Positions 1-46,342 of a stretch of 64,000 bases of DNA are shown here, one piece after another. Within the stretch, counting starts at the first letter, position 1. Every line of letters starts with the position of its first letter. The position numbers and the translations under genes are program-made. Under the pieces are notes generated by a model. That model did not search any database and was not told the origin of the DNA. It was given only the letters and a program-made list of their open reading frames with translations. The DNA is from an uncultured Pseudomonadota bacterium (GTDB lineage: Bacteria > Pseudomonadota > Gammaproteobacteria > Burkholderiales > SG8-39): assembly GCA_963834845.1 (NCBI GenBank), contig CAWICY010000004.1:2969530-3033529 (forward strand), in the 5' to 3' direction.

Positions 1-1143
1 CACTTCCTCGGGCGAATATCCAAGCGCCGGCAGGACCGGCCCGATGTGCGGGTATTGCTCGTAGACCCGAAGGATTTGCCGCGGCGCGGAAGCGCGCGGA
101 TCGACGATTGCCGCGGCGCCGGCGCGTTGCGCCGCAACATAGCCCGCGCCGTAGGGCATGCCGCCGTGGGTAATCGTCGGCCCGTCCTCGACCACCAGGA
201 CGCGCTTGCCGCGCACCGCGTCGGGATCGTCGAGCCGGATCTCGAGCGCGGCATGCAGCACCGGGGCGCGCGGGTTCGCGGCCCGGGCGCTGCGCGTCAC
301 CGCGGCGACCGCCTCGGCGCTCGCCGAGTCGACCTTGGACACGACGATCACGTCGGCCATGCGCAGGCAGGTCTCGCCGGGGTGGTAAAGCGTCTCGTCG
401 CCCGCGCGCAACGGGTCGACCAGCACGATGTGCAGGTCGGGGCGCACGAACGGGAAGTCGTTGTTGCCGCCGTCCCACAGGATCAGGTCGGCCTCGCGCT
501 CGGCGAGCGCGATCACGCGCGCGGTGTCGACGCCCGCGTAGACCGTGCTGCCAGCGGCCAGGTGAGGCTCGTATTCCTCGCGCTCCTCGAGCGTGCAGCG
601 CGCCGCTTCGAGGTCGGCGCGCGTCGCGAAGCGCTGCACCGCCTCGCGCTCCAGCTCGCCGTAGGGCATGGGATGGCGCACCACCGCGACGCGCCGTCCG
701 CGCGCGCGCAGCCGCGCCGACAGCCAGCGCGCCAGCGGCGACTTGCCGGCGCCGGTGCGCACCGCCGAGACCGCGATCACCGGCACGCGCGCCCGGATCA
801 TGGTGCGGCGCGGGCCGAGCAGGGCGAAATCGGCGCCCGCGGCGAGCGCGCGCGAGGCGCGGTGCATCACCTCGGCGTGCGGCAGGTCGCTGTAGGCGAG
901 CACCACCAGGTCGATGGCCTCCGCGCGAATGCGCGCTTCGAGTTCGTCCTCGGGCACGATCGGGATGCCCTGCGGGTAGAGCGCTCCGGCGAGCGAAGGC
1001 GGGTAGCGGCGGCCGGCGATGCCGGGGATCTGCGCCGCCGTGAATGCCACCACCTCGCAGCGCGGGTCGTCGCGGTACGCCACGTTGAAGTTGTGGAAGT
1101 CTCGCCCAGCGGCACCCATGATCAGGATGCGTTTGCGCGTCAT
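1..1143 (-). CDS. COG2403-type predicted P-loop GTPase related to cyclic 2,3-diphosphoglycerate synthetase (partial; C-terminus lies beyond the window edge)
   Basis: Absent from the ORF track because it runs off the edge. My minus-strand translation from ATG 1143..1141 reads MTRKRILIMGAAGRDFHNFNVAYRDDPRCEVVAFTAAQIPGIAGRRYP...AVRTGAGKSPLARWL...ILWDGGNNDFPF. ATGA overlap with the rtcA stop. The plus ORF 46..1293 is its Arg/Ala-rich antisense shadow. Confidence 0.7.
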   Translation of the reverse strand, partial: MTRKRILIMGAAGRDFHNFNVAYRDDPRCEVVAFTAAQIPGIAGRRYPPSLAGALYPQGIPIVPEDELEARIRAEAIDLVVLAYSDLPHAEVMHRASRALAAGADFALLGPRRTMIRARVPVIAVSAVRTGAGKSPLARWLSARLRARGRRVAVVRHPMPYGELEREAVQRFATRADLEAARCTLEEREEYEPHLAAGSTVYAGVDTARVIALAEREADLILWDGGNNDFPFVRPDLHIVLVDPLRAGDETLYHPGETCLRMADVIVVSKVDSASAEAVAAVTRSARAANPRAPVLHAALEIRLDDPDAVRGKRVLVVEDGPTITHGGMPYGAGYVAAQRAGAAAIVDPRASAPRQILRVYEQYPHIGPVLPALGYSPEEV

Positions 1144-2177
1144 CGGACATCGACCCTGGTGAGGCGCGCGCCCTGCGCGGCGGCGTCGAAGCGCGCCGGC
1201 AGGAACTGCTCGATCAGCCACATCGCGGTGCGCGCATGGCTCGATAGCGCGCGCGTGGTGAAAACCGATCGGCCTCCCGCGAGCGCCAGGTAGACGAGAA
1301 GCTGGTCGGCGGCGTGCACGTCGAGCGAGGCGCCCGCCTCGAGATCGTCGCGCAGCGACGCGCCGACGCGCTCGCCGAGCGTCTCGGCGGGCACGCCGCG
1401 CTGCGCCACCTCGCCGGCGCCGAGCACGCTCGCCTCGGTGTCCGCCCAGGCGACAATCGCGCCGCCGCTGCCCTGCGCGGCGTCCGCACCGAGCGTTTCA
1501 ATCCAGATTTCCGCTTCCTCGCAGGCTACCGGTCCCAGCGCCTCGAACGTCGCCGAGCGCATGCGCTCGGCGATGTGCGAGGGGAGGTTGGCGACGTGCG
1601 CCGCGCCGCGCACGTCGAGCAGCCGGCCCGGCGTCGGCGCGGTGAACGGACGCAGGCGCGCGCCGTGTTCGAGCGCCAGCTCCACCTCGCCGCCGCCCTG
1701 CGGGAAATAGCCGCGCCGGCGCACGGCGAGGCTCAGGCGCGCGCCCATGCGCTCGAGCAGTCGCAGCAGCACCGCGCGGAAATAGTCGAGCGGCGGCGCG
1801 GCGCGCACGTCGGTGCCGCCTGCGACGAGCACGCGGCACGCGCGGCCGCTCGCGAGCATCACCGGGACGAGCGCCTGCAGCACCAGCGTCACGCTGCCCG
1901 CGGTGCCGACGTCGAAACGGAACTCGCCGCCGCGCGGCGCGCCGGGAACCACGTGCAGCTCGCGCGCGCCGAGCGCCAGGCCTTCGATGCGCGCGCTGCA
2001 CAGCTCGCCGACCGCGCGTACCGCGGTGAGGTGCTGCGCGGCGAGGCCCGGCTTCTTGCGCCGCGCGCGGATGTTGCGGATCTGCGCCGGCTGCCCGGTG
2101 ACCGCTGCCAGCGCGACCGCCGTGCGCAGCAGCTGGCCGCCGCCTTCGCCATGGGAGCCGTCGATATCGAGCATCAT
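1140..2177 (-). CDS. rtcA: RNA 3'-terminal phosphate cyclase
   Basis: 345-aa ORF with an RtcA-like pattern along its full length (LDIDGSHGEGGGQLLRTAVALAAVTGQP.IRNIRARRKKPGL; GGTDV..APP.DY; HAADQLLVYLALA). Its start abuts the PRTase stop and its stop overlaps the next start (ATGA). Confidence 0.9.
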   Translation of the reverse strand: MMLDIDGSHGEGGGQLLRTAVALAAVTGQPAQIRNIRARRKKPGLAAQHLTAVRAVGELCSARIEGLALGARELHVVPGAPRGGEFRFDVGTAGSVTLVLQALVPVMLASGRACRVLVAGGTDVRAAPPLDYFRAVLLRLLERMGARLSLAVRRRGYFPQGGGEVELALEHGARLRPFTAPTPGRLLDVRGAAHVANLPSHIAERMRSATFEALGPVACEEAEIWIETLGADAAQGSGGAIVAWADTEASVLGAGEVAQRGVPAETLGERVGASLRDDLEAGASLDVHAADQLLVYLALAGGRSVFTTRALSSHARTAMWLIEQFLPARFDAAAQGARLTRVDVR

Positions 2178-2855: not shown

Positions 2856-5499
2856 GCGCGGCGCTGGCGCGCTCGGCGAGGAACGCGGAGAGCACGCGCG
2901 CGGTGTGCGAGTCGGCGCCCGCGGCGGCCTCCGGCGGGCCCTGGAACACGATGCGCCCGCCGCCGGCGCCGCCCTCGGGGCCGAGGTCGACGATCCAGTC
3001 GGCCTCGGCGATGACGTCGAGGTTGTGCTCGATCACGAGCACGCTGTTGCCGGCGTCGACCAGCCGGTGCAGCACGCGGATCAGCTTCTCGACGTCGGCC
3101 ATGTGCAGGCCGACGGTGGGCTCGTCGAGCACGTAGAGCGTATGCGGTCGTGCGCCGCGGGCCGGCGCACCTTGGAAAGCTCGGTGACCAGCTTGATGCG
3201 CTGCGCCTCGCCGCCCGAGAGCGTCGGGCTCTGCTGGCCGAGCGTGAGGTAGCCCAGGCCGACGTCCTGCAGCAGCCGCAGCGCGTGGTGGATCGACGGG
3301 TGCGCGCCGAAGAACTCGACCGCCTCGTCGACGCTCATCGCCAGCACCTCGCCGATGGTCCTGCCGCGCCAGCGCACCGCCAGCGTCTCGGGGTTGAAGC
3401 GCGCGCCGCCGCAGGCTTCGCAGGGCACCTTCACGTCGGGCAGGAAGCTCATCTCGATGCGTCTTCAGGCCCTGGCCCTCGCAGGCTTCGCAGCGCCCGC
3501 CCTTGGTGTTGAACGAGAAGCGGCTCGCGCTCTAGCCGCGCATGCGCGCCTCGCTGGTGTCGGCGAACAGCCTGCGGATCTGGTCCCAGAAGCCGACGTA
3601 GGTCGCCGGGCAGGAGCGCGGCGTCTTGCCGATCGGCGTCTGGTCGACTTCGAGCACGCGCTCGACCGCTGCCGCCGTGATGCCCTTGCAGCCGAGCCGG
3701 CGCTTCCTGTGCGCTGCCGACGGCTGCGCGGTTCGAGCAGCACGTCGCGCGCCAGCGTGGACTTGCCCGAGCCCGACACGCCGGTCACCGCGACCAGCCG
3801 CGCCGAGCGGCACGCGCAGGTCGATCTCCGCGAGGTTGTGCAGGAAGGCTGCCTTCGACCTCGACCGCAGCGCCCCGCGCCGCGACCGGGCGGCGCGGCT
3901 GCAGCGGATGGCGCAGCGGGTGGGCGAGAAAGCGCCCGGTGACCGAATCGGGCAGTGGCCATCAGCTCCTCGGCCGTGCCCTCGCCGATCACGCGGCCGC
4001 CGAGCTTGCCGGCGCCCGGTCCGAGGTCGATCACGTGGTCGCGCGCGGCGGATGGTGTCCTCGTCGTGCTCGACCACCACCAGCGTGTTGCCCTTCGCTT
4101 CGAGCTTCTCCAGCGTGTCGAGCAGGATGCGGTTGTCGCGCGGGTGCAGGCCGATGGTCGGCTCGTCGAGGATGTAGCACACGCCGCGCAGGTTGGAGCC
4201 GAGCTGCGCGGCGAGCCGGATGCGCTGCGCCTCGCCGCCGGAGAGCGTCGGCGCCGAGCGGTCGAGCGCCAGGTAGCCGAGCCCGACCTCGCTCGAGGAA
4301 CTCCAGACGGCTCGACAGCTCGGCGAGCAGGTCGCGCGCGATCTCGCGCTCGCGTCCTTCGAGCGCGACGCCGGCGAACAGTGCGGCGAGCTCCTCGACC
4401 GGCCGCGCGCCGTAGTCGGCGATCGATTCGCCGCGGAAGCGCACCGCCAGCGCCTCGGGATTGAGGCGCCTGCCGTCGCAGCGGGGCAGGCCTCGTCGAC
4501 CTCGAGCCACTCGATCCAGGAATCGAGCACGTGGTCCTCCGCGCCGGTGCGTGCGCGCTCGTCGTTCCACTCGACCTCGGCGATCTTCAGCCCCGTGCCG
4601 TAGCAGGCGGCGCACCAGCCGTGCTTGGAGTTGTAGGAGAACAGCCGCGGGTCGAGCTCGGCGAAGCTGCGCCCGCACGAGGGCAGGCGCGCTTGGTCGA
4701 GTAGCGCGCCTGGTGCAGCACCATATCCACCAGGCCCTTCGCCTTGGAGGCGGCCTTCACCAGCGCATCGAGGTCGGAGAGCACGTGCACCACGCCCTTG
4801 CCGAATTCCAGCGCTTGCGACAGCTCGGCGCGCAGCGCGCGCTCGTTCGCAGGCAGTACGCGCAGATCGGCCACCGGCAGCTCGATGTTGTGCTCCTTGA
4901 ACCGGTCGATGCGCGGGAACGGATCGACCGGCAGGAACGCGCCGTCGACGCGCAGGCTGTTGTAGCCCTTCGCCTTGGCCCATTTCGCGAGGTCGGTGTA
5001 GTACGCCCTTGCGGTTCACGACCAGCGGCGCGAGCAGCCCGATGCGCTGGCCGCGGTACTCGCGCAGCAGGCGCGCGGCGATCGCGTCCTCGCTCTGCGG
5101 CTCGATCGGCACGTCGGCAGTCGGGGCAGTACTGGGTGCCGAGCTTGACGAAGAGCAGGCGCAGGAAGTGGTGGATCTCGGTGAGCGTGCCGACCGTGCT
5201 CTTCCTGCCGCCGCGGCTGGTGCGCTGCTCGATCGCCACCGTCGGCGGGATGCCGAAGATGGCGTCGACGTCGGGGCGCGAGGCGGCTGCACGAACTGGC
5301 GCGCGTAGGCGTTGAGCGACTCGAGGTAGCGGCGCTGGCCCTCGGCGAACAGGATGTCGAAGGCGAGCGTCGACTTGCCCGAGCCCGACACGCCGGTGAT
5401 CACGGTGAAGCGGTTGCGCGGGATGTCGACGTCGATGTTCTTCAGGTTGTGCTCGCGCGCGTTGTGGATCCGGATCGCATTGCCGAGATAGCGACGCAT
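2845..5499 (-). pseudogene. UvrA-family ABC ATPase, downstream copy, disrupted by many frameshifts and one in-frame TAG
   Basis: UvrA segments are spread over three frames. Examples: [61 protein letters not shown]; AIEQRTSRGGRKSTVGTLTEIHHFLRLLF; [37 protein letters not shown]; [19 protein letters not shown]; [15 protein letters not shown]; [41 protein letters not shown] count at least 12 frame changes. TAG at 3532-3534 replaces the Tyr of the conserved RGY..RFSFN motif. Confidence 0.85.
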
Positions 5500-10553: not shown

Positions 10554-10567
10554 TTGAGTTAGATCAA
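10554..10567. promoter_or_regulatory. FNR/Anr-type box TTGAGTTAGATCAA upstream of phaC
   Basis: Match to the TTGA-N6-TCAA palindrome in the 67-nt SPFH-phaC spacer. The box centre is 41 nt before ATG 10601. Confidence 0.55.
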
Positions 10568-20565: not shown

Positions 20566-20579
20566 TTGACCAGCATCAA
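20566..20579. promoter_or_regulatory. FNR/Anr-type box TTGACCAGCATCAA upstream of the SYLF gene
   Basis: The palindrome is centred 68 nt before ATG 20504. TAGAAA lies at the expected -10 position on the minus strand (20544..20539). Confidence 0.55.
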
Positions 20580-25140: not shown

Positions 25141-26802
<1,662 letters not shown>

Positions 26803-26806
<4 letters not shown>

Positions 26807-27619
26807 AGCATCGCCCCCGGCCGGTCGACGGCGTACTGGCCCAGCCGGCCGACGATCCACTGGTAGGCCTCGTCCACCGAGTCGGTGCGGAACACCAGGT
26901 CGAGTCCGGCGCGCTGATGGTGCCGTGGCGCACCAGCGCGTCGAAGTCGATCACCTCCCGCCAGAAGCGGGTGCCGAACAGCACGATCGGCATCGGCTTG
27001 GTCATCTTGCGCGTCTGCACCAGCGTCAGCAGCTCGAACAGCTCGTCTAGCGTGCCGAAGCCTCCGGGAAAAACGATCACCGCCTTCGCCAGATAGGCGA
27101 ACCAGAACTTGCGCATGAAGAAGTAGTGGAAGTGGAAGGCGAGCTCGCGCGTGACGTACGCGGTTGTCGAACTCCTCCACCGGGAATCGAGATGGTGAGC
27201 CCGACGTTCATGCCGCGTGCTTCCGCCGCGCCGCGGTTGGCGGCCTCCATGATGCCCGGGCCGCCGCCGGTGCACACCACGAAGCGCCGCTCCTTCGAGT
27301 CGAGCGCCTTGGACCACTCGGTGAGCCGGAACGCGAGCTCGCGCGCCGCCTCGTAGTACTGCGACATTCCGAGGTCGGTGCGCGCGCGCTCGGGATCGCC
27401 TTCGTCGAGCTGCGCCTGGCGCAGGGCCGCCTCGGCCTGCTCGCGCGACTTGATGCGCGCCGAGCCCATGAAGACGATGGTGTCGTCGACGCGGTGATGC
27501 TCGAAGCGGCTGAGCGGCTCGAGGTACTCCGCCAGGATGCGCAGCGCGCGCGCATCCTTGCTCTTCAGAAAGCCCCGGTTGGTGTAGGCCTTGACCGGCC
27601 GACGTGGCTTTTCCTTCAT
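26803..27619 (-). pseudogene. LOG / TIGR00730-family Rossmann protein (cytokinin riboside 5'-monophosphate phosphoribohydrolase-like), 2-3 frameshifts
   Basis: The N-terminal part is in ORF 27077..27619 (VCTGGGPGIMEAANRGAAEARG). The middle is in ORF 26415..27317 ([42 protein letters not shown]). The end is in ORF 26803..27180 ([19 protein letters not shown]). Confidence 0.75.
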
Positions 27620-27665: not shown

Positions 27666-28196
27666 TCAGCGGCTCCAGGTCGCGCGCAGCAGCTGGTCTT
27701 CCTTGTTGTAGTGGAACTCGACCTCGCCCTTGTAGGCCTCGTGCACGCGCTCGGCGATGTCGCGCGCCATGTGCGTGCCGGTGGTGGTGACGAGCATCCC
27801 TTCGTCGGTGTCCTCGATCGCCATGATGCGCTCGAGCGGATGTCCGGACTTCTCCTTGCCCTCGCAGTTGCGCACCATGTGCGTGATCTCGTCGCGATGC
27901 GCCTTCAAGTACGGGCCCTTCAGCGTCACGGAGCCGGCGGGATACTTGTCGCGGATGCGGTGGCACGCGGGGCACAGCTGCTCGTGGGCGCCCGGGTCTG
28001 CGGCTTCCCATGTCCAGCGCCCCCGATGATAGGTCGCGCCGCAGCCGGGGCAGCGCGTCGGCTCGGGCAGCTTGCCCTTGGTCTTGTAGGTGTCGTGCAC
28101 GAGCTCCTGCAACAGCTGCTCCCTGCGGAGCATACGAAAACTTCCGCGATCCGGTTTCATGACCTGGCCTTCCATTGCGATTGATTTCTCGGACAT
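27666..28196 (-). CDS. four-Cys zinc-ribbon protein (resembles what I recall as the 'BCAM0308 family')
   Basis: In ORF 27666..28328. Candidate starts are 28196, 28175 or 28160. ...LLQELVHDTYKTKGKLPEPTRCPGCGATYHRGRWTW....LCPACHRIRDKYPAG.VTL.G....HRDEI..MVRN. Confidence 0.6.
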   Translation of the reverse strand: MSEKSIAMEGQVMKPDRGSFRMLRREQLLQELVHDTYKTKGKLPEPTRCPGCGATYHRGRWTWEAADPGAHEQLCPACHRIRDKYPAGSVTLKGPYLKAHRDEITHMVRNCEGKEKSGHPLERIMAIEDTDEGMLVTTTGTHMARDIAERVHEAYKGEVEFHYNKEDQLLRATWSR

Positions 28197-28197
28197 C

Positions 28198-28746
28198 TCA
28201 GGGCAAGGGCCCGTGCTTGCCGACGCTGACGCGCTTCGCCTGCGGCCCTTCGGCCGCCGCCTCTTCGATGAACTGCACCTCGGTGCCGACCGCGAGGCCC
28301 TTGAAATCCGGGTGCACCACGTTTGCACGGCTGAAATACAGCTCGCGCCCGTCCGGCGTCGCGATAAAGCCGTAGCCCTCGTCGGCGACGAGGCGCGCGA
28401 CGCGCCCGTGCTGCGGCACGTCGTGGAGCTTGACGTCGCCCCGTCGGACGCGCACGTCCTCCTCGAGCTGCCGCGTCACCGCCGCGAAGGCGTCGCGCAG
28501 CGCCACGTACACGTCCTCGTGATGGTCGCGGTTGGCGACGATCTCGCGTCCCGGTACGTGCGCGTCGATGCGCACCTGGAACTGGCGCCCCTGATGCTGG
28601 TGCTTGTCCTTTTCCTCGACCGTGACGCGGCAGCTGATGAGCTGCGGGTGGAATTCCTCCAGTTTCGCGGCCTGGTCGCGGATGCGCGCCTCGAGCGCGT
28701 CGGAAGCCGGCATGTGGCGGACCGTGATTTGCAGGGGTACTTGCAT
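28198..28746 (-). CDS. HPF/RaiA ribosome-hibernation domain fused to a C-terminal cold-shock (CSD/OB) domain
   Basis: 182-aa ORF. The N-terminus MQVPLQITVRHMPASDALEARIRDQAAKLEEFHPQLISCRVTVE... is HPF/RaiA-like. The C-terminus GRVARLVADEGYGFIATPDGRELYFSRANVV...GTEVQFIEE is CspA-like. Confidence 0.75.
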   Translation of the reverse strand: MQVPLQITVRHMPASDALEARIRDQAAKLEEFHPQLISCRVTVEEKDKHQHQGRQFQVRIDAHVPGREIVANRDHHEDVYVALRDAFAAVTRQLEEDVRVRRGDVKLHDVPQHGRVARLVADEGYGFIATPDGRELYFSRANVVHPDFKGLAVGTEVQFIEEAAAEGPQAKRVSVGKHGPLP

Positions 28747-28809
28747 GGGACCTTCTTTTGGGCGGGTTGAACCTCTGCTTTCAGAATAGCGGGAGGCCGA
28801 GGGCGGGAC

Positions 28810-28823
28810 TTGACCTTGATCAA
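28810..28823. promoter_or_regulatory. FNR/Anr-type box TTGACCTTGATCAA upstream of hpf-CSD
   Basis: Centred 70 nt before ATG 28746 and overlapping the DUF504 stop codon. TATTCT lies at the expected -10 position (28789..28784, minus strand). Confidence 0.55.
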
Positions 28824-29086
28824 ACCGGTCCCTTTGGCGCTCGCTGCCAGATGAGCTTGCCGTCGCGCCACACCTCGCGTATGCGGTGAAACGGTACCAT
28901 GTGCGTGCTGCCGTCGTCCTCGACTGCGTCGAACGCGAAATGTTCGCCGGGCTCCAGATTCAACCGCCTGAACGGCACGCGCACGTTGCGCCCGGCGACG
29001 CGATCCTCGTAGCCGATCTCGAACTCGCCCTTGCCGAATTCCGGGTCCCAGCGGATGCGGTGCAGCAGGTCCTGGATGGGCATCAT
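28820..29086 (-). CDS. DUF504 / MJ1316-type domain protein (proposed RNA 2',3'-cyclic-phosphate end recognition domain)
   Basis: 88 aa starting at the internal ATG 29086: MMPIQDLLHRIRWDPEFGKGEFEIGYEDRVAGRNVRVPF...HMVPFHRIREVWRDGKLIWQR. ATGA overlap with the PrimPol stop. The family call is from memory of the L..I.WD...Y.DR...IP.HRI...G..IW.R pattern. Confidence 0.65.
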   Translation of the reverse strand: MMPIQDLLHRIRWDPEFGKGEFEIGYEDRVAGRNVRVPFRRLNLEPGEHFAFDAVEDDGSTHMVPFHRIREVWRDGKLIWQRAPKGPV

Positions 29087-29896
29087 GGTCGCTGCGCATC
29101 GCGTTCGCCGAGGTGCAGGCGCGCGATGCTGTCGACCACGCTCGCCACTTCGGCGTCCTCGAGCGGCGGGCTGCAGCGCGCGCGGTTCCACGCCAGCAGC
29201 AGCTCGAGCACCACCTCGGGATCGACCTCGTGCCACAGCAGGTGGCCGGCGAGCGAGGCGAGCGTGGCGTTGCGCTCGCCTTCGCCGACGCCACGGCGGA
29301 CCAGCTCGCGCCAGTGGGCGAGCGGGTGTCCGGCGCGCTTCGCGCCGGCGTCGCGCAGCAGCCAGGTCGGCAGCGGCGCGAGCGGCGCCTCCTGCGGCGC
29401 CCGCCCGCCCGCCCAGGCATAGCGGCGGCCGGTCGGATGGATCGACGGCGGCGCGACGACGCAGCCGCCGTCGCCGCGCAGGTCGATGCCGGGCAGCAGG
29501 CCGACGCGGTTGCCGACCCGGCCGCCCGGGTGCGCGAAGTACAGGTGGCGTCCGCCGCCGCCGGTCAGCGCCTCGACAGTCTCCGGCAACGGGCCGTGAG
29601 CGGCTTCGAGCCGGGCGAGGCTCGCGTCGCCGCCGTGCCCGACGTCGACATCGACCACCACCAGCCCGGAGATGCGTCCGGTGACGATGCCGAGATTGGC
29701 CTCCGGCCAGCGCGCGATCCACGCCTCGAGGTCGTCGGGCGTCGCCAGTCGATCCTGGAACTCGAGCCACGCGATCAGCGGGCGCTTGCCGCGGCGCTCG
29801 ATCGGGATCACCGACCAGCCGCGCCGCAGGTAGCCTAGTGCCGCCTCGCGGTTGCTTGGTGCCGAAGCGCGCTGCGTTGCGTCCCCTCGTCGTCAT
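29083..29896 (-). CDS. bifunctional DNA primase/polymerase (archaeo-eukaryotic Prim-Pol) with a PriCT-like C-terminal domain; frameshift near 29850
   Basis: ORF 29083..29811 carries GLVVVDVDVGHGG (metal-binding DxD), GGGRHLYF and GDGGCVVAPPSIHPTG, then GERNATLASLAGHLLW. The in-frame upstream stretch ...NREAALGYLRRGWSVIPIE has no start codon. ATG 29896 (MTTRGRNAARFGTKQ) is one frame off. Confidence 0.75.
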
Positions 29897-29939
29897 GCGT
29901 AGTCGAGTACGCATTGTTGGGCGAGTTCCCGTGCGCAGT

Positions 29940-29953
29940 TTGATTTACGTCAA
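29940..29953. promoter_or_regulatory. FNR/Anr-type box TTGATTTACGTCAA between PrimPol and a small plus-strand ORF
   Basis: Centred 50 nt before PrimPol ATG 29896 and 41.5 nt before ATG 29988. Confidence 0.5.
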
Positions 29954-29987: not shown

Positions 29988-30176
29988 ATGGGTCATATGG
30001 AAAAATTCGTGCGTACGCGGCTCCGTCGCGACGGCGCCGAAGACGTGACGGTGCTGCTCGAAAGTGCGGACGCCTTCGAGCCGCGCGTACTCGAACTGCT
30101 GCGCAACCTCAGCGCGCGCTCGGTCCGCTGCAGGCTGCGCCTGGTGGGCGACGGCAGGAAGACGAAACGGACCTGA
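29988..30176 (+). CDS. hypothetical small basic protein (tentative)
   Basis: Inner part of ORF 29838..30176: MGHMEKFVRTRLRRDGAEDVTVLLESADAFEPRVLELLRNLSARSVRCRLRLVGDGRKTKRT. Third-position G+C is high in this frame. No family recognised. Confidence 0.3.
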   Translation: MGHMEKFVRTRLRRDGAEDVTVLLESADAFEPRVLELLRNLSARSVRCRLRLVGDGRKTKRT

Positions 30177-30276
30177 GCTGCGCCACGCGGCATCGACGTG
30201 CAGCAGCTCATCCTCGGGCGTCTCCGTGTCAATCACGACGCTCGAAGCGATGTTGGACGCGCGCCCGCGCCGGCGC

Positions 30277-30290
30277 TTGACGTACGTCAA
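30277..30290. promoter_or_regulatory. FNR/Anr-type box TTGACGTACGTCAA (perfect 14-bp palindrome) upstream of capA
   Basis: Centred 47 nt before ATG 30331. Confidence 0.5.
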
Positions 30291-30330
30291 CCCGGATCCC
30301 GCTTGCGGCGTCAACATGCTCACAATCCCC

Positions 30331-31428
30331 ATGAGAGTGGTCACGTTGTTCCTCGCAGGAGACGTCATGACCGGGCGCGGCATCGACCAGATCCTGCCGC
30401 AGCCGGGCAAGCCCGGGCTGTTCGAGCCGTGGGTGCGCTCGGCGCTCGATTACGTTGCGCTGGCCGAGCGCGCGAGCGGGCCGCTCGCGCGACCCGTGGC
30501 GTTCTCCTACGTGTGGGGCGACGCAATGGCGGAACTGGAACGCGCGAAGCCGGACGCGCGCATCGTCAACCTCGAGACCGCGGTGACGACGAGCGACGAC
30601 GCCTGGCCGGCGAAGGCCATCCACTACCGCATGCATCCGGGCAACGTGCCGTGCCTGACCGCGGCCGGGCTCGATTGCTGCGTGCTCGCCAACAACCACG
30701 TGCTCGACTGGGGCGGGGCGGGTCTCGCGGAGACGCTCGCAACGCTGCACGCCGCGGGGCTGCGCACCGCCGGCGCGGGGCGCGACGCGGCGGAGGCGCA
30801 GGCGCCCGCGGTGATCGAGTGCCGCCGCGGCGGCCGCGTGCTGGTGTTCGCCTTTGCCAGCGAGACGAGCGGCGTGCCGCGCGCCTGGGCCGCCGGGCCG
30901 CAGCATGCGGGGGTGAGCCTGCTCGAGGACCTGTCGGCGCGCAGCGTCGCTGCCGTCGCGCGGCGCATCGGCGCCGAGCGGCGCAGCGGCGACATCGTGG
31001 TCGCCTCCATACACTGGGGCGGCAACTGGGGCTACGGCATCGACTCGGCGCAGCGCGCCTTCGCGCGAGACTTGATCGACAGCGCGGGCGTCGACGTGGT
31101 GCACGGCCATTCGTCGCACCACCCGAAAGGCATCGAAGTGCACCGCGAGCGCCCGATCGTGTACGGCTGCGGCGACTTCATCACCGACTACGAGGGCATC
31201 GGCGGGCGCGAGGAATTCCGCCCCGAGCTCTCGCTGATGTACTTTCCCACGCTAGATGCGGACAGCGGCCGGTTGCTGAAACTCGCGCTAACGCCGATGC
31301 GGCTGCGCCGCATGCGGCTCGAACGCGCCGCACAGGGCGATGTCGCATGGCTGTGCGACGCGCTCGAAAAGCTCGGCACGCGGCTCGAGCCTCAGGCCGA
31401 TCGCACGCTGTCGCTGCGCTGGCACTAG
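30331..31428 (+). CDS. CapA-family (PGA_cap metallophosphatase-like) protein
   Basis: In ORF 30064..31428: [19 protein letters not shown]...[11 protein letters not shown]...[11 protein letters not shown]...[14 protein letters not shown]. An alternative start is ATG 30316. Confidence 0.8.
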
Positions 31429-36865: not shown

Positions 36866-38056
36866 TCACCAAACCTGCTGCGGGCCCTCGAGCAGCTCGC
36901 GCCACAGCTCGCCGAGGCGACTCAAATGGTCGCCGGCCAGTTCGGCGACGCGCGGCCGCAGCGCCGCGAGCGCGGCGGGCTCTGCGAGCCGCAACTTCAG
37001 GTCCATGAGCTGCGGCTCGGTGATCGGGCGGCCGATGCGGCTCACCAGGTAGCAGTAGGCTTCTTGCACGCCGGCGATCTCGGCGACCAGCGCGCGCGCG
37101 ATGCGGTTGGCGAGCAGGTTGTACAGCTTGCCGACGTGCGTCACGGGGTTCTTGCCCGCGGCCGCTTCCAGGCTCATCGGGCGGTACGGCGTGATCAGGC
37201 CATTGACGCGGTTGCCGCGACCCACCTGGCCGTCGTCGCCCGCCTCGGCCGACAGGCCGGTCACCGTCAGGTACACGCTGTCGGCGGTGTCGCCGTCGGC
37301 TGTGTTGACGGCGATCTCGGCCCCGCCGCCGGCCGCCGCGGCCGCGATCTCGCGGATGCGCGCTTTCTTGCGGCGGTAATCGTCGAGGCTGGCGACGTGC
37401 CGTCCGACCAGCGCGCAGGCGATGGTAAGCACCATGTCGCCGCTGCTGCGCACGCCCATGACCTTGATGTCCTCGCCGACCTCGGGCTGCGCGGCCTTGA
37501 CCTCGGGCGAGTTGAGCCTGCGCTCGACTGCGAGCACCGCGCGCTCGAGCGGGTCGAGCGGCGCGAAGCCGACGCCGAGCGAGGTGTCGTTGGCGAGCGG
37601 CGCGCCGCCTTCGCGCCGGCGCAGGAACAGCGCCGCGAGGTCGGGCGAGGCGGGGCGGATGCGCGGGTGGATGCGGACCTGGTGCTCGGAGTCGAGGTGG
37701 CGCAGGTTCTCACGCAGCCAGCGGTGGCTTTCCTCGATCGCGATCTCGTCCACGGGAATCGTCACGCCCTCGAACTGCGCGGTGGCGCGCCCGGCCAGGT
37801 AGATGTCGATCGGTTCGATGACCTCGCCGCCGCCGAACGCGGGCCGCGCCGCGCCGCCGCACAGCAGCGCCTTGTCGACGTTGTGGTGCAGGATCACGCC
37901 GCAGCGCAGGAGGTAGAAGCGCGAAAGAGCGCGGCTCAGGTTCTCGGTGAGCGCATCGCAAATGGTGTCGGGATGCCCGAGTCCCTTGCGCTCCACGATT
38001 TCGAGTGGCAGCGATGCGGGCGAGGGCGCTTCAAGAAGGCTGATGACGGGCTTCAC
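36866..38056 (-). CDS. archaeal-type S-adenosylmethionine synthetase (methionine adenosyltransferase, PF01941 type)
   Basis: In ORF 36866..38248, with a GTG start at 38056. EIVERKGLGHPDTICD, ILHHNVDKALL, PLANDTSLGVGFAPL, GEDIKVMG, YLTVTGLSAEAGDDGQVGRGNRVNGLITPYRPMSLEAAAGKNPVTHVGKLYNLLAN are colinear with the Methanocaldococcus MAT as I remember it. Confidence 0.85.
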   Translation of the reverse strand: MKPVISLLEAPSPASLPLEIVERKGLGHPDTICDALTENLSRALSRFYLLRCGVILHHNVDKALLCGGAARPAFGGGEVIEPIDIYLAGRATAQFEGVTIPVDEIAIEESHRWLRENLRHLDSEHQVRIHPRIRPASPDLAALFLRRREGGAPLANDTSLGVGFAPLDPLERAVLAVERRLNSPEVKAAQPEVGEDIKVMGVRSSGDMVLTIACALVGRHVASLDDYRRKKARIREIAAAAAGGGAEIAVNTADGDTADSVYLTVTGLSAEAGDDGQVGRGNRVNGLITPYRPMSLEAAAGKNPVTHVGKLYNLLANRIARALVAEIAGVQEAYCYLVSRIGRPITEPQLMDLKLRLAEPAALAALRPRVAELAGDHLSRLGELWRELLEGPQQVW

Positions 38057-38675
38057 CGAGCAGCCTGACCACCTCTTCGTCCTCGACCTGCGGAAATTCG
38101 CGGTAGAACTGACCGACCGCGTAGAACTCGGCCGGCGCAGCCAGGCAGACGACCTTGTCGGCGTACGGGCGCACGCGCTCCAGGCTGTCCGGCGCCGCGA
38201 CCGGCACCGCGCAGACGAGCTCCTGCGGCCCCTTTGCGCGTACGGCATGCAGCGCCGCGATCATGCTGGCCCCGGTGGCGAGCCCGTCATCGACCACGAT
38301 CGCGATGCGTCCGGCGAGATCGAGCGGCGGGCGGGCCGGCGTATAGCGCGCGCGCCGCTCGCGCAGCGTCTGGAGCTGCAGCTGCTTTTCGCGCTCGATG
38401 TGCGCCGGGTCGGCGCCGACGCTCGCGGCATGCGGGGCGACGTAGGTCCACCCCGTCTCGTCGACCGCCCCGACGGCCAGCTCGGGGTTGCCCGGCGCGC
38501 GCAGCTTGCGCACCAGCACGACGTCGAGCTCGCCTTGGAGCGCCTCGGCGAGCACGGCAGCCATGCCCACGGCGCCGCGCGGGATCGCCAGCACCAGCGG
38601 GTTGCGCCCGCGATACTGCGCCAGCGCCTCGGCCAGCTGGCGCGCAGCGTCGATGCGCGTTGCGAATTTCTTCAT
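38031..38675 (-). CDS. phosphoribosyltransferase-family protein (paralog 2)
   Basis: 214-aa ORF with the PRPP loop IAIVVDDGLATGASM. Same architecture as 2178..2855. Confidence 0.8.
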   Translation of the reverse strand: MKKFATRIDAARQLAEALAQYRGRNPLVLAIPRGAVGMAAVLAEALQGELDVVLVRKLRAPGNPELAVGAVDETGWTYVAPHAASVGADPAHIEREKQLQLQTLRERRARYTPARPPLDLAGRIAIVVDDGLATGASMIAALHAVRAKGPQELVCAVPVAAPDSLERVRPYADKVVCLAAPAEFYAVGQFYREFPQVEDEEVVRLLGEARHQPS

Positions 38676-39188: not shown

Positions 39189-39895
39189 GGACGCAATGTT
39201 GCTACCGCTCCGCGCCGGCCGGTTTGACCGGGATCAAGCTGCGGCGCCGATGCGGCCGCCGCGGCGTGCGACGCGCGGTTGACGCACGCGAGCAGCGTGG
39301 CGTAGCCGAACAGGTTGGTGCGGCGCGTTTCGACCACGTCGAGCTGTGCGGCGGCGAGGAAGCGCTCGAGATCCATGTCGCCGCGGTAGCGCAGCACGCG
39401 GTACACCGGCTCGAGCAGCGTCTCGCACAGGCGCAGCAGGAAGCTGCGCGTACGGAAGTGCTGCACGATGACGATGGTCCCGCCGGGGCGGCACACGCGC
39501 CGCATCTCGTTCACGGCGCGCACCGGATGGGGCAGGCCCGAGAGCGCGAACATCAGCGCTACCTTGTCGAAACTGCCGTCCGCGAACGCCAGGCGACCGG
39601 CGTCCATCTGCACCAGCGCCTCGACCTGCGCCAGGCCACGCGCGGCGACGCGCGCCGCGGCCTTGGCGAGCATCTCGCGCGACACGTCGATGCCGGTGAC
39701 GCGCACCTCGCGCGGGTACAGCGGCAGCGACAGGCCCGTGCCCACGCACACTTCGAGCACCCGGTCGCCGGGACGGCAGTCGAGCGCCTTGAGTGCGGCA
39801 CGGCGCCCGGGCGCGAGGCTCGCGCCGAACACCAGGTCGTACAGCGGAGCGAAGCGGCGATAGCCACGCTGGCTGAGTTCGATCGCTGATTTCAT
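39185..39895 (-). CDS. class I SAM-dependent methyltransferase (UbiE/PmtA-like)
   Basis: 236-aa ORF: YDLVFGASL...GDRVLEVCVGTGLSLPLY (motif I)...DKVALMFALSGL...RVCRPGGTIVIV. Confidence 0.8.
   Translation of the reverse strand: MKSAIELSQRGYRRFAPLYDLVFGASLAPGRRAALKALDCRPGDRVLEVCVGTGLSLPLYPREVRVTGIDVSREMLAKAAARVAARGLAQVEALVQMDAGRLAFADGSFDKVALMFALSGLPHPVRAVNEMRRVCRPGGTIVIVQHFRTRSFLLRLCETLLEPVYRVLRYRGDMDLERFLAAAQLDVVETRRTNLFGYATLLACVNRASHAAAAASAPQLDPGQTGRRGAVATLRP
39224..39237. promoter_or_regulatory. FNR/Anr-type box TTGACCGGGATCAA inside the 3' tail of the methyltransferase ORF
   Basis: Centred 42 nt before ATG 39188 of the 165-aa ORF. Identical 14-mer to the box at 41479. Confidence 0.45.
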
Positions 39896-39986: not shown

Positions 39987-40000
39987 TTGATCGCGGTCAA
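39987..40000. promoter_or_regulatory. FNR/Anr-type box TTGATCGCGGTCAA in the divergent methyltransferase / M50 protease spacer
   Basis: Centred 64 nt before ATG 40058 and 98 nt before ATG 39895. Confidence 0.5.
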
Positions 40001-41478: not shown

Positions 41479-41492
41479 TTGACCGGGATCAA
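41479..41492. promoter_or_regulatory. FNR/Anr-type box TTGACCGGGATCAA upstream of the DUF2934 gene
   Basis: Centred 61 nt before ATG 41424. Confidence 0.55.
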
Positions 41493-44850: not shown

Positions 44851-44864
44851 CTTGATCTCGATCA
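44851..44864. promoter_or_regulatory. FNR/Anr-type box TTGATCTCGATCAA (matches both consensus half-sites)
   Basis: Lies in the divergent spacer. Centred 72 nt before ATG 44785 (minus) and 85 nt before ATG 44943 (plus). Confidence 0.55.
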
Positions 44865-44942: not shown

Positions 44943-45335
44943 ATGACACTGACCGCCAAGCAGATGGAAGAGTTCGGCCGCCTGATCCGCCAGCGCCGCG
45001 AGCAGCTGGTGAGCGAACTGCTCGAGGACGTGGCGCGCTCGCGCGACGAGAGCTACGCCAGCGTGGCGGGGCAGGTGACCGATCTCGGCGACGAGGCGCT
45101 CGCCGACCTGCTTTCGGATCTGGACAACGCCGAGGTTGCGCGCGACATGCGCGAGATCCGCGCGCTCGACGCGGCGCTGGCGCGCGTCGCGGACGGCAGC
45201 TACGGCAATTGCGCCGACTGCGGTGGCGACATCGGCCTGGAGCGGCTGCACGCCTTCCCTACGGCGTTGCGCTGCATCAGGTGCCAGGAGGTCTACGAGA
45301 AGACCCACGCGCACCCGGCGGAGCCGCGTCTCTAG
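44943..45335 (+). CDS. TraR/DksA-family C4 zinc-finger protein
   Basis: 130-aa ORF: ...YGNCADCGGDIGLERLHAFPTALRCIRCQ. Confidence 0.8.
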   Translation: MTLTAKQMEEFGRLIRQRREQLVSELLEDVARSRDESYASVAGQVTDLGDEALADLLSDLDNAEVARDMREIRALDAALARVADGSYGNCADCGGDIGLERLHAFPTALRCIRCQEVYEKTHAHPAEPRL

Positions 45336-46342
45336 CCGGGCGCTTTCCGCGCCCGCTCCAGCTCCGTGCGCAGCTCGGCTTCGCGCTCGGCGTAGCGCGG
45401 CGAGAAATGGAATGGCACCACCAGGCGCGCGCGCGCCACGCGTGCAATGTTGCCGGCCTGGCGCGCGGTGAGGTGGAACTTGCGCGCCGCGTGGTCCGCG
45501 TCCTCGTCCAGGAACACGCACTCGATGTATAGCTGGTCCGCGTCGGCCGCGAGCGCGGCGAGGCGCCGCTCGTTCTCGGCGCTGTGCAGCACGTCGGTCG
45601 CGTAGCACAGCTTCTCGCCGGGCACCAGCTCGAGCACGCGCGCCTTGAGCTCACCCAGGGAATGATGCTGCTCGTGCAGGCCGTCGCGGTCGTGCCACCA
45701 GGCGCGCTGCCGCGTGTCGTCGGGCGCGCCCTGCATCACCGCGCGCTTCAGCTCGGTGAGCCACGGCCCCGTCTGCAGGCCCATCTCGGCGAGCCGGTTC
45801 TTCCACACGTTGACGTGCGTCTTCTCTTCCAGCACGAAGGCGAGGCAGGTGATGTCGTGGTCGAGCGCCGCCGCCCGCACGCGAAACGCCGGCTCGTCGA
45901 GCAGCAATCCCGCAGGGGCGTCGCGCGGCGGCTGCGGCTCCCGCTCGAAGCGCGCGTGGCAGCGAAAGCGTGCGGCGCGCAGCCGCTCGCCGTCGAGCTC
46001 GTGCACCAGCAGCGCGAAGTCCGTCGCATAGTTCTGCACCAGGTTCCAGCTATAGGCGGCGAGCTTGTGCTCGACGCGGCCGATGAAGCCCGGCGGACCG
46101 TAGAGACGGACCGCGGTCTCGCGCCCCAGGCACACGCGCAGCAGCCGGTCGAAGCCGACGAAGTGGTCCATGTGGGCGTGCGACACGAAGACGTCGGTCA
46201 GGCGCAGGATCTTGCGCGGCGGGAGCGCCGCGATGTCGCCGAGGTCGAACAGCAGCGCGCGGCCCTCGAACTTGAAGTCGAGGTACAGGCAAGGATCGCC
46301 GAACGGGCCGTTGACGAGTTCCGGGGTGAAGATCGGGCGCAT
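45332..46342 (-). CDS. MBL-fold metallo-hydrolase (RNase Z-like)
   Basis: Starts at the internal ATG 46342: MRPIFTPELVNGPFGDPCLYLDF...LTDVFVSHAHMDHFVGFDRLLR. Confidence 0.8.
   Translation of the reverse strand: MRPIFTPELVNGPFGDPCLYLDFKFEGRALLFDLGDIAALPPRKILRLTDVFVSHAHMDHFVGFDRLLRVCLGRETAVRLYGPPGFIGRVEHKLAAYSWNLVQNYATDFALLVHELDGERLRAARFRCHARFEREPQPPRDAPAGLLLDEPAFRVRAAALDHDITCLAFVLEEKTHVNVWKNRLAEMGLQTGPWLTELKRAVMQGAPDDTRQRAWWHDRDGLHEQHHSLGELKARVLELVPGEKLCYATDVLHSAENERRLAALAADADQLYIECVFLDEDADHAARKFHLTARQAGNIARVARARLVVPFHFSPRYAEREAELRTELERARKAPG

Follow-up and report, generated by a model that had tools for sequence, protein, structure and literature searches.

Two described gene sets are the closest counterparts of the locus reported here, a string of minus-strand genes in a 64-kb window (the whole stretch of DNA analyzed, from contig CAWICY010000004.1 of an uncultured Pseudomonadota bacterium, a soil betaproteobacterium) that encodes an AEP-type primase-polymerase (AEP, archaeo-eukaryotic primase), PrimPol, and a small DUF504 (MJ1316) protein, next to a ribosome-hibernation unit. 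In the low-oxygen-activated (lxa) locus of Burkholderia cenocepacia (Sass et al. 2013, PMC3721108), as in the window, an FNR/Anr-type TGA-N6-TCA motif precedes many genes, and common to the two are a protein of the BCAM0308 family, a 'lysine decarboxylase' of LOG type, a polyhydroxyalkanoate (PHA) synthase, a metal-dependent RNase or metallo-β-lactamase (MBL) protein, and BON-type (phospholipid-binding) proteins. For each, the presumed benefit is that an aerobe persists without oxygen. The lxa locus characteristically encodes Hsp20 and several universal stress proteins; these were not found, nor was an FNR-family regulator, among the approximately 75 open reading frames (ORFs) of the window that were scanned for families, frameshifts leaving parts of the window unreadable. 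In turn, the available portions of the lxa tables (PMC3721108, PMC4981469) list no PrimPol, DUF504, RtcA, or fusion of HPF with a cold-shock domain (HPF-CSD). The lxa locus is activated by low oxygen, whereas induction in the window is predicted from its genes and motif. The second gene set is the mycobacterial DosR regulon (PMC5309233), whose mix of an HPF-like protein (RafH, Rv0079), a PGA_cap-like protein (Rv0574c), a phosphoribosyltransferase (PRT; Rv0571c), and an RNA repair enzyme resembles the HPF, PGA_cap, PRT, and RtcA genes of the window. DosR genes are hypoxia-induced under DosR, whereas the window has an FNR-type box; the DosR RNA enzyme is the ligase RtcB (Rv2631), whereas that of the window is the cyclase RtcA, and no AEP polymerase is listed in DosR.

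RNA end repair has described neighborhoods of its own. The Rtc operon (RtcR-RtcB-RtcA) handles 3′-phosphate and 2′,3′-cyclic-phosphate RNA ends under stress and has RtcA in common with the loci considered here; there RtcA is encoded with RtcB and RtcR behind a sigma-54 promoter, whereas in the relatives of the window it is encoded with MJ1316, PrimPol, a protein here termed X, or an M28 peptidase, with an FNR type of promoter and no fixed ligase. Hibernation-factor genes lie beside RNA repair genes (RtcB) in stress and hypoxia operons (PMC10901736), and recognition of RNA 2′,3′-cyclic-phosphate ends by MJ1316 has been predicted (cited in PMC6514570). Bacterial AEPs have been reported by Kazlauskas et al. 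to be encoded almost exclusively on mobile elements (PMC5862659), which makes the context of PrimPol in the window unusual, and a part in RNA repair has been predicted for AEP domains of eukaryotes (PMC5862659, PMC8211822). The primase-polymerases most similar to that of the window, pRN1 ORF904 and other plasmid and phage enzymes (3m1m, 1rni, and 9aam; NrS-1; RepB′), share its Prim-Pol and PriCT-1 domains and its three catalytic motifs, yet the window protein is only about 15-18% identical to pRN1-type enzymes, has no helicase or winged-helix domain, is chromosomal and conserved within a stress regulon, and is found outside any mobile-element context.

The mycobacterial Prim-PolC/LigC and LigD-POL enzymes are bacterial AEPs encoded on the chromosome, able to use ribonucleotides and active in DNA repair when cells are not growing, but they belong to another AEP clade, without PriCT-1, and the PrimPol of the window has no Ku or ligase partner. 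To our knowledge, the exceptions to the rule that bacterial AEPs belong to mobile elements are the enzymes of non-homologous end joining (NHEJ) and base excision repair (BER) and the CRISPR-associated PrimPols. Already known are low-oxygen regulons of the FNR/Anr type (lxa among them), the family of BCAM0308, chimeras of HPF with Csp, the placing of hibernation factors beside genes for RNA repair, RtcA, the predicted reading of ends by MJ1316, and eukaryotic AEP domains with a predicted part in RNA repair; the new element of this locus is a hypoxia-linked cellular PrimPol tied to RtcA and MJ1316. The initial annotation of this DNA, made from the letters alone, had taken the arrangement for an undescribed system. 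That view stands insofar as the searchable literature, a scope outside of which Burroughs & Aravind (2016, NAR 44:8525) falls, holds no description of a hypoxia-embedded chromosomal PrimPol and PriCT-1 clade or of a module of PrimPol with RtcA or MJ1316; it does not extend to the neighborhoods of hibernation and RNA repair genes, which have been published (PMC10901736, PMC5309233).

The locus is best read, with reasonable though not strong confidence, as two FNR/Anr-activated units in a low-oxygen survival island, one of which would belong to a nucleic-acid end-handling module. The division into two units and their place in the regulon can be regarded as highly probable, and the functional coupling of PrimPol with DUF504 and RtcA is a closer call that tilts slightly in its favor.

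Four minus-strand ORFs between positions 29953 and 27666 encode PrimPol (an AEP Prim-Pol domain followed by a PriCT-1 helix bundle; 29083-29877, with an annotated GTG start at 29811), the MJ1316/DUF504 protein (88 aa; 28820-29086), a protein of 182 aa joining an HPF/RaiA-type hibernation domain to a cold-shock domain (28198-28746), and a BCAM0308-family zinc-ribbon protein of 164 aa with an NMD3-like region (27666-28160). The string runs on beyond the zinc-ribbon gene, at which the initial annotation had ended it, into a LOG-family ('possible lysine decarboxylase'; PF03641) gene on the same strand (26806-27619), the third gene of the HPF unit. The PrimPol stop codon and the DUF504 start codon share the sequence ATGA, and as a second ATG gives TGATG, the genes overlap in both cases. 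Two perfect FNR/Anr-type boxes lie on the minus strand: box 1 (TTGACGTAAATCAA, 29940-29953) upstream of PrimPol, and box 2 (TTGATCAAGGTCAA, 28810-28823), which overlaps the DUF504 stop codon at the head of a 73-nt spacer before HPF-CSD. On these points the initial annotation has held up well, since the PrimPol, PriCT, DUF504, HPF, and cold-shock assignments all score above their Pfam cut-offs and the ATGA overlap, the two boxes, the gap it had put at about 70 nt, and the CPGC...CPAC motifs of the zinc-ribbon protein are all present.

The boxes are not chance occurrences, because the motif TTGAYN4RTCAA has nine perfect matches in the window, mostly intergenic, against 0.04 expected from dinucleotide-preserving shuffles, none of 100 of which reached nine. 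Loci of relatives were fetched for comparison and are given L-numbers, L001 being an independent assembly that matches the window. A box directly after DUF504 is kept in L007, L009, L014, L020, and L048, and this conservation, together with box 2 itself and the 73-nt spacer, argues for a separate promoter of the HPF-CSD unit, of which box 2, as a predicted FNR/Anr site, is the promoter element. The string is read as two adjacent transcription units, PrimPol-DUF504 and HPF-CSD/BCAM0308/LOG, and not the single four-gene system that had been proposed; the second unit also occurs elsewhere without PrimPol or DUF504. A box is found upstream of PrimPol in all eight of the closest metagenome relatives, but in its strict form in only 17 of 72 loci overall. 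In relatives without boxes, the upstream regions show no common motif, and many of the PrimPol genes run on from an upstream gene. The two boxes would drive two transcripts under an FNR/Anr-type regulator at low oxygen, and box 1 appears to have the geometry of a class II FNR promoter.

Box 1 is probably shared by minus-strand PrimPol and a small divergent ORF on the plus strand (62 aa; 29988-30176). The small ORF has no Pfam family, and it is found at the same position, with 52-67% amino acid identity, in L007, L009, L014, L020, L048, and L086-L089. Its ATG is 41.5 nt from the center of box 1, an arrangement that suggests a leaderless transcript, and box 1 may be bidirectional.

The recurrence of PrimPol, DUF504, and RtcA was followed in two surveys. 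The first was centered on DUF504 and covered 80 loci from species-representative genomes, searched with the proteins of the window. RtcA is directly upstream of DUF504, often overlapping it, in 39 of these loci, among them nine with the order X-RtcA-DUF504-M28 that is typical of Nitrosomonas, and the pairing of RtcA with DUF504 also appears in the precomputed Pfam annotation of three loci. PrimPol is directly upstream of DUF504 in eight loci, PrimPol-X-DUF504 and PrimPol-RtcA-DUF504 strings occur in three each, a divergent PrimPol lies beside RtcA-DUF504 in three, DUF504 is followed by PrimPol in one, and no query family is directly upstream of DUF504 in 31. DUF504's firmest partner is RtcA, not PrimPol. 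The initial annotation had named chance juxtaposition as the conclusion to be drawn if PrimPol-DUF504 adjacency did not recur in other genomes, and it does recur. Its suggestion of a link to the biology of RNA 2′,3′-cyclic phosphates has become stronger than first stated, given the 39 RtcA-DUF504 loci and the existence of the three-gene strings.

The second survey was centered on PrimPol and covered 80 metagenome loci, approximately 52 of which extend at least 1 kb downstream of the gene. Immediately downstream of PrimPol are DUF504 in six of these, X-DUF504 in three, and RtcA, with or without DUF504, in six (and in two more on contigs that end early), so that RtcA, DUF504, or X directly follows PrimPol in 15 of approximately 52 loci (about 29%). 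In two cases the start of RtcA lies 3 nt ahead of the stop codon of PrimPol. In three loci (L090, L091, and L093) the next gene after PrimPol is HPF-CSD, and DUF504 is missing; the rest have mostly mutually different genes, the only recurrent case being a convergent gene for an MBL hydrolase (four loci). Each pairing can occur by itself, with PrimPol-RtcA lacking a detected DUF504 in L097, L102, and L109 and PrimPol-DUF504 lacking RtcA in the window, L086, and L089. Protein X is a 282-aa Rossmann-like protein with a weak match to GFO_IDH_MocA that is absent from the window; its gene, seen in L009 (6368-7216), L003 (6097-6945), L087, L088, and L143, lies between PrimPol and DUF504 or, in Nitrosomonas-type loci, before RtcA. 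Two further neighbors were observed: an RdgB/HAM1-like ITPase gene, seen by eye, is directly upstream of PrimPol-RtcA in L097 and L102, and a gene for a small uncharacterized protein (VDRW.G...RY.RCR..DG..YVLRHDE....W.LAAFT) adjoins PrimPol in L026 and L028, where it is upstream, and in L117 (7100-7459). The ITPase gene is one of the nucleotide-pool genes that share a string with PrimPol, as genes of this kind also do on the Rhizobium plasmid described below.

As the initial annotation had indicated, the window itself encodes RtcA, the RNA 3′-phosphate cyclase (1140-2177, minus strand; Pfam RTC, 2.6e-77, and RTC_insert). In relatives, the neighbors of RtcA are DUF504, PrimPol, X, or an M28 peptidase; in the window RtcA is beside a PRT gene and has no DUF504 after it, and no scanned ORF matched RtcB or a sigma-54 activator.

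PrimPol matches the Pfam families Prim-Pol (PF09250; 6.4e-41, 140.9 bits vs. a cut-off of 22.8) and PriCT_1 (PF08708; 5.2e-14, 52 bits vs. a cut-off of 21.1), the latter corresponding to helices 178-252 of the model. The three catalytic motifs (hhhDhD, sxH, and hD) are present as VVVDVDV, GGGRHLYF, and IDLRGDGG, and the catalytic Asp and His residues, including the metal-binding Asp pair, are invariant in 57 homologs of 64-90% identity. A search of the Protein Data Bank (PDB) by sequence returned no relative. The AlphaFold2 model, with a mean predicted local distance difference test (pLDDT) score of 89.9, found its best Foldseek matches in pRN1 ORF904 (helix bundle included) and the NrS-1, RepB′, and S-2L PrimPols, with a probability of 1.00 to pRN1 ORF904 and NrS-1 PrimPol at E-values of 1e-8 to 1e-5, and both domains could be aligned structurally to PDB 3m1m and 9aam; the POL domain of LigD was a marginal fold match (E 0.46). 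PrimPol thus appears to keep the architecture of a de novo primase, and primase/polymerase activity is predicted. The earlier suggestion that it could act on RNA or ribosome-associated ends during dormancy rather than in DNA priming finds no support in a protein that keeps the PriCT-1 bundle and has the fold of pRN1's DNA primase-polymerase.

The clade to which this protein belongs yielded 4676 matches at E ≤0.001, mostly from soil and sediment Betaproteobacteria, and all of the best 120 of them have the Prim-Pol and PriCT_1 architecture in 241-316 aa. In the window, PrimPol has 242-264 aa and no further domain, its neighbors are regulon genes, and none of the scanned ORFs proved to be a helicase, integrase, or phage gene; it is a chromosomal, stand-alone, helicase-less member of its clade. 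Homologs on plasmids and phages do not exceed 40% identity, carry P4-family primase or VapE domains, and have helicases fused to them or next to them. Two matches in a plasmid collection are closer, both on very large replicons; one of them, on a 308-kb plasmid of Rhizobium daejeonense, is 57.6% identical and is likewise set among stress genes, in a PRT-PrimPol-PEBP arrangement beside GroEL, Hsp20, and prs genes (L166, 8307-10269). PADLOC gave no defense-model match for PrimPol, DUF504, BCAM0308, or RtcA and returned only a generic cold-shock model; a reading of the locus as a defense system was dropped on that result.

The 5′ end of PrimPol is atypical. The conserved N-terminal helix of homologs, EAALGYLRRGW, is encoded in frame upstream of GTG 29811, from which the Pfam Prim-Pol match begins only at profile position 12, and no ATG, GTG, or TTG is in frame between the preceding TGA and that helix. 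If translation began at a near-cognate codon, ACG (29877-29875), the protein would have 264 aa and regain the N-terminal helix; from GTG 29811 it would have 242 aa. The window, L090, and L091 share the ACG and the downstream GTG without a canonical start, whereas L092, L093, and L008 have a TTG start codon preceded at 7 nt by GAGAGGA, and PrimPol of L086 starts with GTG. The window sequence GAGGGGA (29882-29888, minus strand), which aligns with the GAGAGGA of these relatives, is a Shine-Dalgarno candidate and probably the ribosome-binding site of PrimPol. Upstream of it, 22-27 nt after box 1, is the −10-like element AACAAT (29913-29918, minus strand), which holds an out-of-frame 'ATG' at 29914; (C/G)AACAAT is conserved in the window, L086, L090-L093, and L008, and AACAAT is placed where a class II FNR promoter would have its −10 element. 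In L007, L009, L048, and L089, the PrimPol ATG is a few nucleotides past the predicted FNR-dependent transcription start, which would yield a near-leaderless mRNA, and at that place loci of the window's class have instead a 47-nt insertion carrying the Shine-Dalgarno-like GAG(A/G)GGA.

The initial annotation had suspected a frameshift near 29850. This was dismissed because the 5′ region and coding part are colinear with six relatives (L086, L090-L093, and L008) and L001 differs from the window by one mismatch and no gaps over 2207 bp. A spurious G in the GGGG run near 29885, which would join ATG 29896 to the frame, was considered, since LOG and EttA do have frameshifts of one base, and was dismissed on the same alignment with six relatives, in which the 'ATG' at 29914 falls into the conserved −10-like element and GAGGGGA pairs with the relatives' ribosome-binding site. 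PrimPol would start either at the ACG or at GTG 29811, in a gene that is not visibly broken.

The DUF504 protein covers the full MJ1316 profile (PF04457; 5.3e-25, 88.4 bits vs. a cut-off of 26.3) and falls short of the NCBIfam equivalog PRK04257 (42.4 bits vs. a cut-off of 92); it is in the domain family and outside the equivalog. A first search returned 215 close homologs, every one a single-domain protein from Betaproteobacteria, and a profile search of 1.84 billion representatives returned 656 matches, nearly all of 60-150 aa. The only long proteins among the best 150 of the 656 are one of 518 aa without a second Pfam domain and a repeat protein of 4342 aa (P0363), in which profile positions 7-27 are matched 31 times and no Pfam domain is found, and which is probably a repeat artifact. 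The family conserves Arg, His, and Trp residues, which are consistent with predicted phosphate and base binding. The model of the window protein (pLDDT approximately 80) has a helix followed by six strands, and its fold matches, to Hfq/Sm and WYL domains, are weak (E 0.02-0.3); a search of the PDB with the DUF504 profile gave nothing useful. The conserved residues and the linkage to RtcA are consistent with the predicted recognition of 2′,3′-cyclic-phosphate ends by DUF504.

In the second unit, the HPF domain scores well above its Pfam cut-off (PF02482; 6.6e-16, 59.3 bits vs. 23.7) and just short of that of TIGR00741 (36.9 bits vs. 40.9), and the cold-shock domain (PF00313; 8.4e-9, 35.6 bits vs. 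a cut-off of 27) has an RNP1-like YGFI and an RNP2-like LYFS. The initial annotation had called the fusion unusual, but the architecture is found again in many relatives, and HPF-Csp chimeras, in which a short HPF without dimerization domain is joined to a cold-shock domain, are described in a preprint (bioRxiv 10.1101/2025.11.04.686544). The protein in the window has this same architecture. An exact-match look-up did not find this particular protein on record. The pairing of HPF-CSD with BCAM0308 is not among the points mentioned in the available passages of the preprint, and the searchable literature holds no description of HPF-BCAM0308 pairing.

The zinc-ribbon protein matches the full 153-position profile of NCBIfam NF040826, 'lxa_BCAM0308' (208.6 bits vs. 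a cut-off of 100, 3.6e-62), and the region after its CPGC...CPAC motifs matches Pfam NMD3 (1.2e-9). The family, named 'NMD protein affecting ribosome stability' by JGI and assigned to COG1499, is almost uniformly 164 aa long, and the start is therefore likely to be ATG 28160, approximately 37 nt past the HPF-CSD stop codon and not 1 nt past it as had been proposed. BCAM0308 adjoins an HPF or HPF-CSD gene, in variable order, in 23 of 33 loci (e.g., L002, 10997-11891), a count biased by the choice of these loci via DUF504 or PrimPol. The adjacency and the NMD3-like region make BCAM0308 a candidate ribosome-binding or hibernation factor. A LOG gene directly follows BCAM0308 in L007, L009, L048, L089-L092, and L143 as well as in the window, where it is split over three reading frames that align at 82-95% identity with an intact 271-aa homolog in L143.

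Single-base indels of this kind were also observed elsewhere. Besides LOG, which needs two frame changes to match intact homologs, the EttA gene (ORF 25141-27096), which needs one, is broken, with its C-terminus shifted at about 26690-26700, and a uvrA-like gene is fragmented, by eye, over 3.5-9 kb, with one fragment at 4587-5015. This is more suggestive of an assembly prone to errors, probably one from long reads, than of pseudogenes. The G+C content of the window is approximately 70% and uniform, and Rfam found no RNA family in it.

Other perfect boxes place further genes in the putative regulon. Box 3 (30277-30290, plus strand) is upstream of the PGA_cap gene (ORF 30064-31428); a box at 39224 precedes a unit for an unknown 165-aa protein, a PRT, and an archaeal-type S-adenosylmethionine (AdoMet) synthetase (36866-38248, minus strand; PF01941, 4e-148); one at 39987 precedes a divergent pair encoding a methyltransferase and an M50-CBS protease; and one at 44852 precedes a DksA/TraR gene. 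A one-mismatch box at 10554 precedes the PHA synthase gene (PhaC). Two perfect boxes were seen without an obvious target, one flanked by the 3′ ends of the genes for the M50-CBS and CheR-like proteins (41479-41492) and one inside an over-extended ORF of a Ysc84-domain protein (20566-20579), possibly upstream of the real start. Genes of lxa type in the window are those for BCAM0308, LOG, PhaC, a BON-domain protein, and the MBL hydrolase (45332-46330, minus strand; Lactamase_B_2), the last also listed by the initial annotation, and genes of DosR type are those for HPF, PGA_cap, PRT, and RtcA; the window further encodes a GYD protein, an M28 peptidase, an EttA-like ABC-F protein, and a second PRT, beside which RtcA is located. 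Two neighborhoods were observed in passing: the archaeal-type AdoMet synthetase recurs near DUF504 or PrimPol in nine loci (L002, L011, L014, L020, L048, and L090-L093), and the MBL hydrolase gene adjoins the FNR-boxed DksA/TraR gene in the window, with close copies convergent with PrimPol in L128, L131, L137, and L157. The motif and the partial gene content point to membership in an lxa-type regulon with presumed low-oxygen induction, and by analogy the island would correspond, in a betaproteobacterium, to the lxa locus of Burkholderia and the DosR regulon of mycobacteria.

The proposed explanation is that PrimPol, DUF504, and RtcA or X may form a loosely conserved nucleic-acid end-handling module, from which RtcA would have moved 27 kb away in the window genome. 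DUF504 would bind phosphate-blocked ends (2′,3′-cyclic or 3′-phosphate), RtcA would interconvert them, and PrimPol would carry out template-dependent synthesis in non-growing cells poor in deoxynucleotides, where it might reprime, fill gaps, or patch with ribonucleotides, be it on DNA or at ends that contain RNA. The HPF-CSD/BCAM0308/LOG unit would silence and store ribosomes and trim nucleotide pools, and the two units would be neighbors through co-regulation and not parts of one machine. As to the substrate of PrimPol, the modeled primase architecture argues for DNA-templated initiation and the partner families for RNA ends. That PrimPol is the synthesis part of a dormancy-specific end repair, together with RtcA and an MJ1316 cyclic-phosphate reader, on RNA or ribonucleotide-containing DNA ends, is offered tentatively, as a possibility on the doubtful side.

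Several observations weigh against this explanation. Strict FNR boxes precede PrimPol in a minority of relatives, the RtcA gene of the window is 27 kb from PrimPol with no FNR box nearby, and about two-thirds of close PrimPol relatives have neither RtcA nor DUF504 adjacent. PGA_cap is an equally frequent neighbor of PrimPol, so that adjacency may reflect regulon clustering and not joint action, and neither RtcB nor another ligase was found among the scanned ORFs. There is no fusion with PrimPol or RtcA in the best 150 of the 656 DUF504 representatives, the recognition of ends by MJ1316 comes from a prediction in the literature (PMC6514570), and the fold matches of DUF504 are weak. Full-length expression of PrimPol is not certain, as no canonical start is settled.

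One alternative is that the genes are no more than neighbors within a regulon, in which hypoxia and dormancy genes (including PGA_cap, PRT, and M28) are shuffled by co-regulation, PrimPol acts alone on DNA, DUF504 acts with RtcA on RNA, and the ATGA overlap reflects packing. It would explain why the same dozen families surround PrimPol and DUF504 in changing order, why most PrimPol relatives lack the module, and why no fusions to PrimPol or RtcA occur among the best 150 of the 656 DUF504 representatives, and it agrees with the DNA primase-polymerase fold of PrimPol. It does not account as readily for the same-strand stop/start overlaps that recur for PrimPol both with DUF504 and with RtcA, or for the pairing of PrimPol with each partner separately, in several gene orders and at protein identities of approximately 60-90%; besides HPF-CSD and the convergent MBL hydrolase, RtcA/X/DUF504 is the only recurrent downstream partner of PrimPol. 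Co-regulation without joint action is a credible explanation, although an unlikely one.

A PrimPol acting on RNA, as the initial annotation had proposed, would repair or extend rRNA or tRNA ends in hibernating ribosomes, with DUF504 as guide and RtcA preparing the ends, and so overlaps with the end-handling module. RtcA and MJ1316 (PMC6514570), two of the module's three members, belong to families of RNA-end proteins, the module adjoins ribosome-hibernation genes, and there are precedents in RNA repair genes beside hibernation factors (PMC10901736), in the RtcB of DosR (PMC5309233), and in the eukaryotic AEP domains predicted in RNA repair (PMC5862659, PMC8211822). However, the closest structures are DNA-templated primase-polymerases with an initiation helix bundle, a cyclic or 3′-phosphate end is not extendable and no phosphoesterase or ligase is fixed in the module, and the HPF unit has its own promoter; an RNA-acting PrimPol is judged improbable.

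A chance origin of PrimPol, as the possibly decaying remnant of replication genes brought in by a plasmid or prophage, would suit the prevalence of bacterial AEPs on mobile elements (PMC5862659), the typical occurrence of PriCT-1 PrimPols in plasmid and phage replication, and the lack of any canonical start ahead of GTG 29811, but is very hard to credit given that integrase, helicase, and phage genes were not found among the scanned ORFs, that G+C content is uniform, that synteny and FNR box are conserved over many genomes and metagenomes, that invariant catalytic residues in the 57 homologs indicate purifying selection, and that the mobile-element homologs are so distant.

The end-handling module within a low-oxygen island thus remains the preferred reading. 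If PrimPol does act with RtcA and MJ1316 in repair, this would be the first bacterial pathway for the repair of RNA or ribonucleotide-containing DNA to rely on a polymerase of the AEP type, and it would give PrimPols a cellular role not seen before, apart from mobile elements, NHEJ and BER, and CRISPR adaptation. Through the pairing of HPF with BCAM0308, the NMD3-like protein becomes a candidate for a hibernation factor. A functional linkage, if there is one, would supply a context for RtcA without RtcB and a bacterial test bed for the uncharacterized MJ1316 domain, and it would suggest how non-growing aerobes keep their nucleic acids intact without oxygen.

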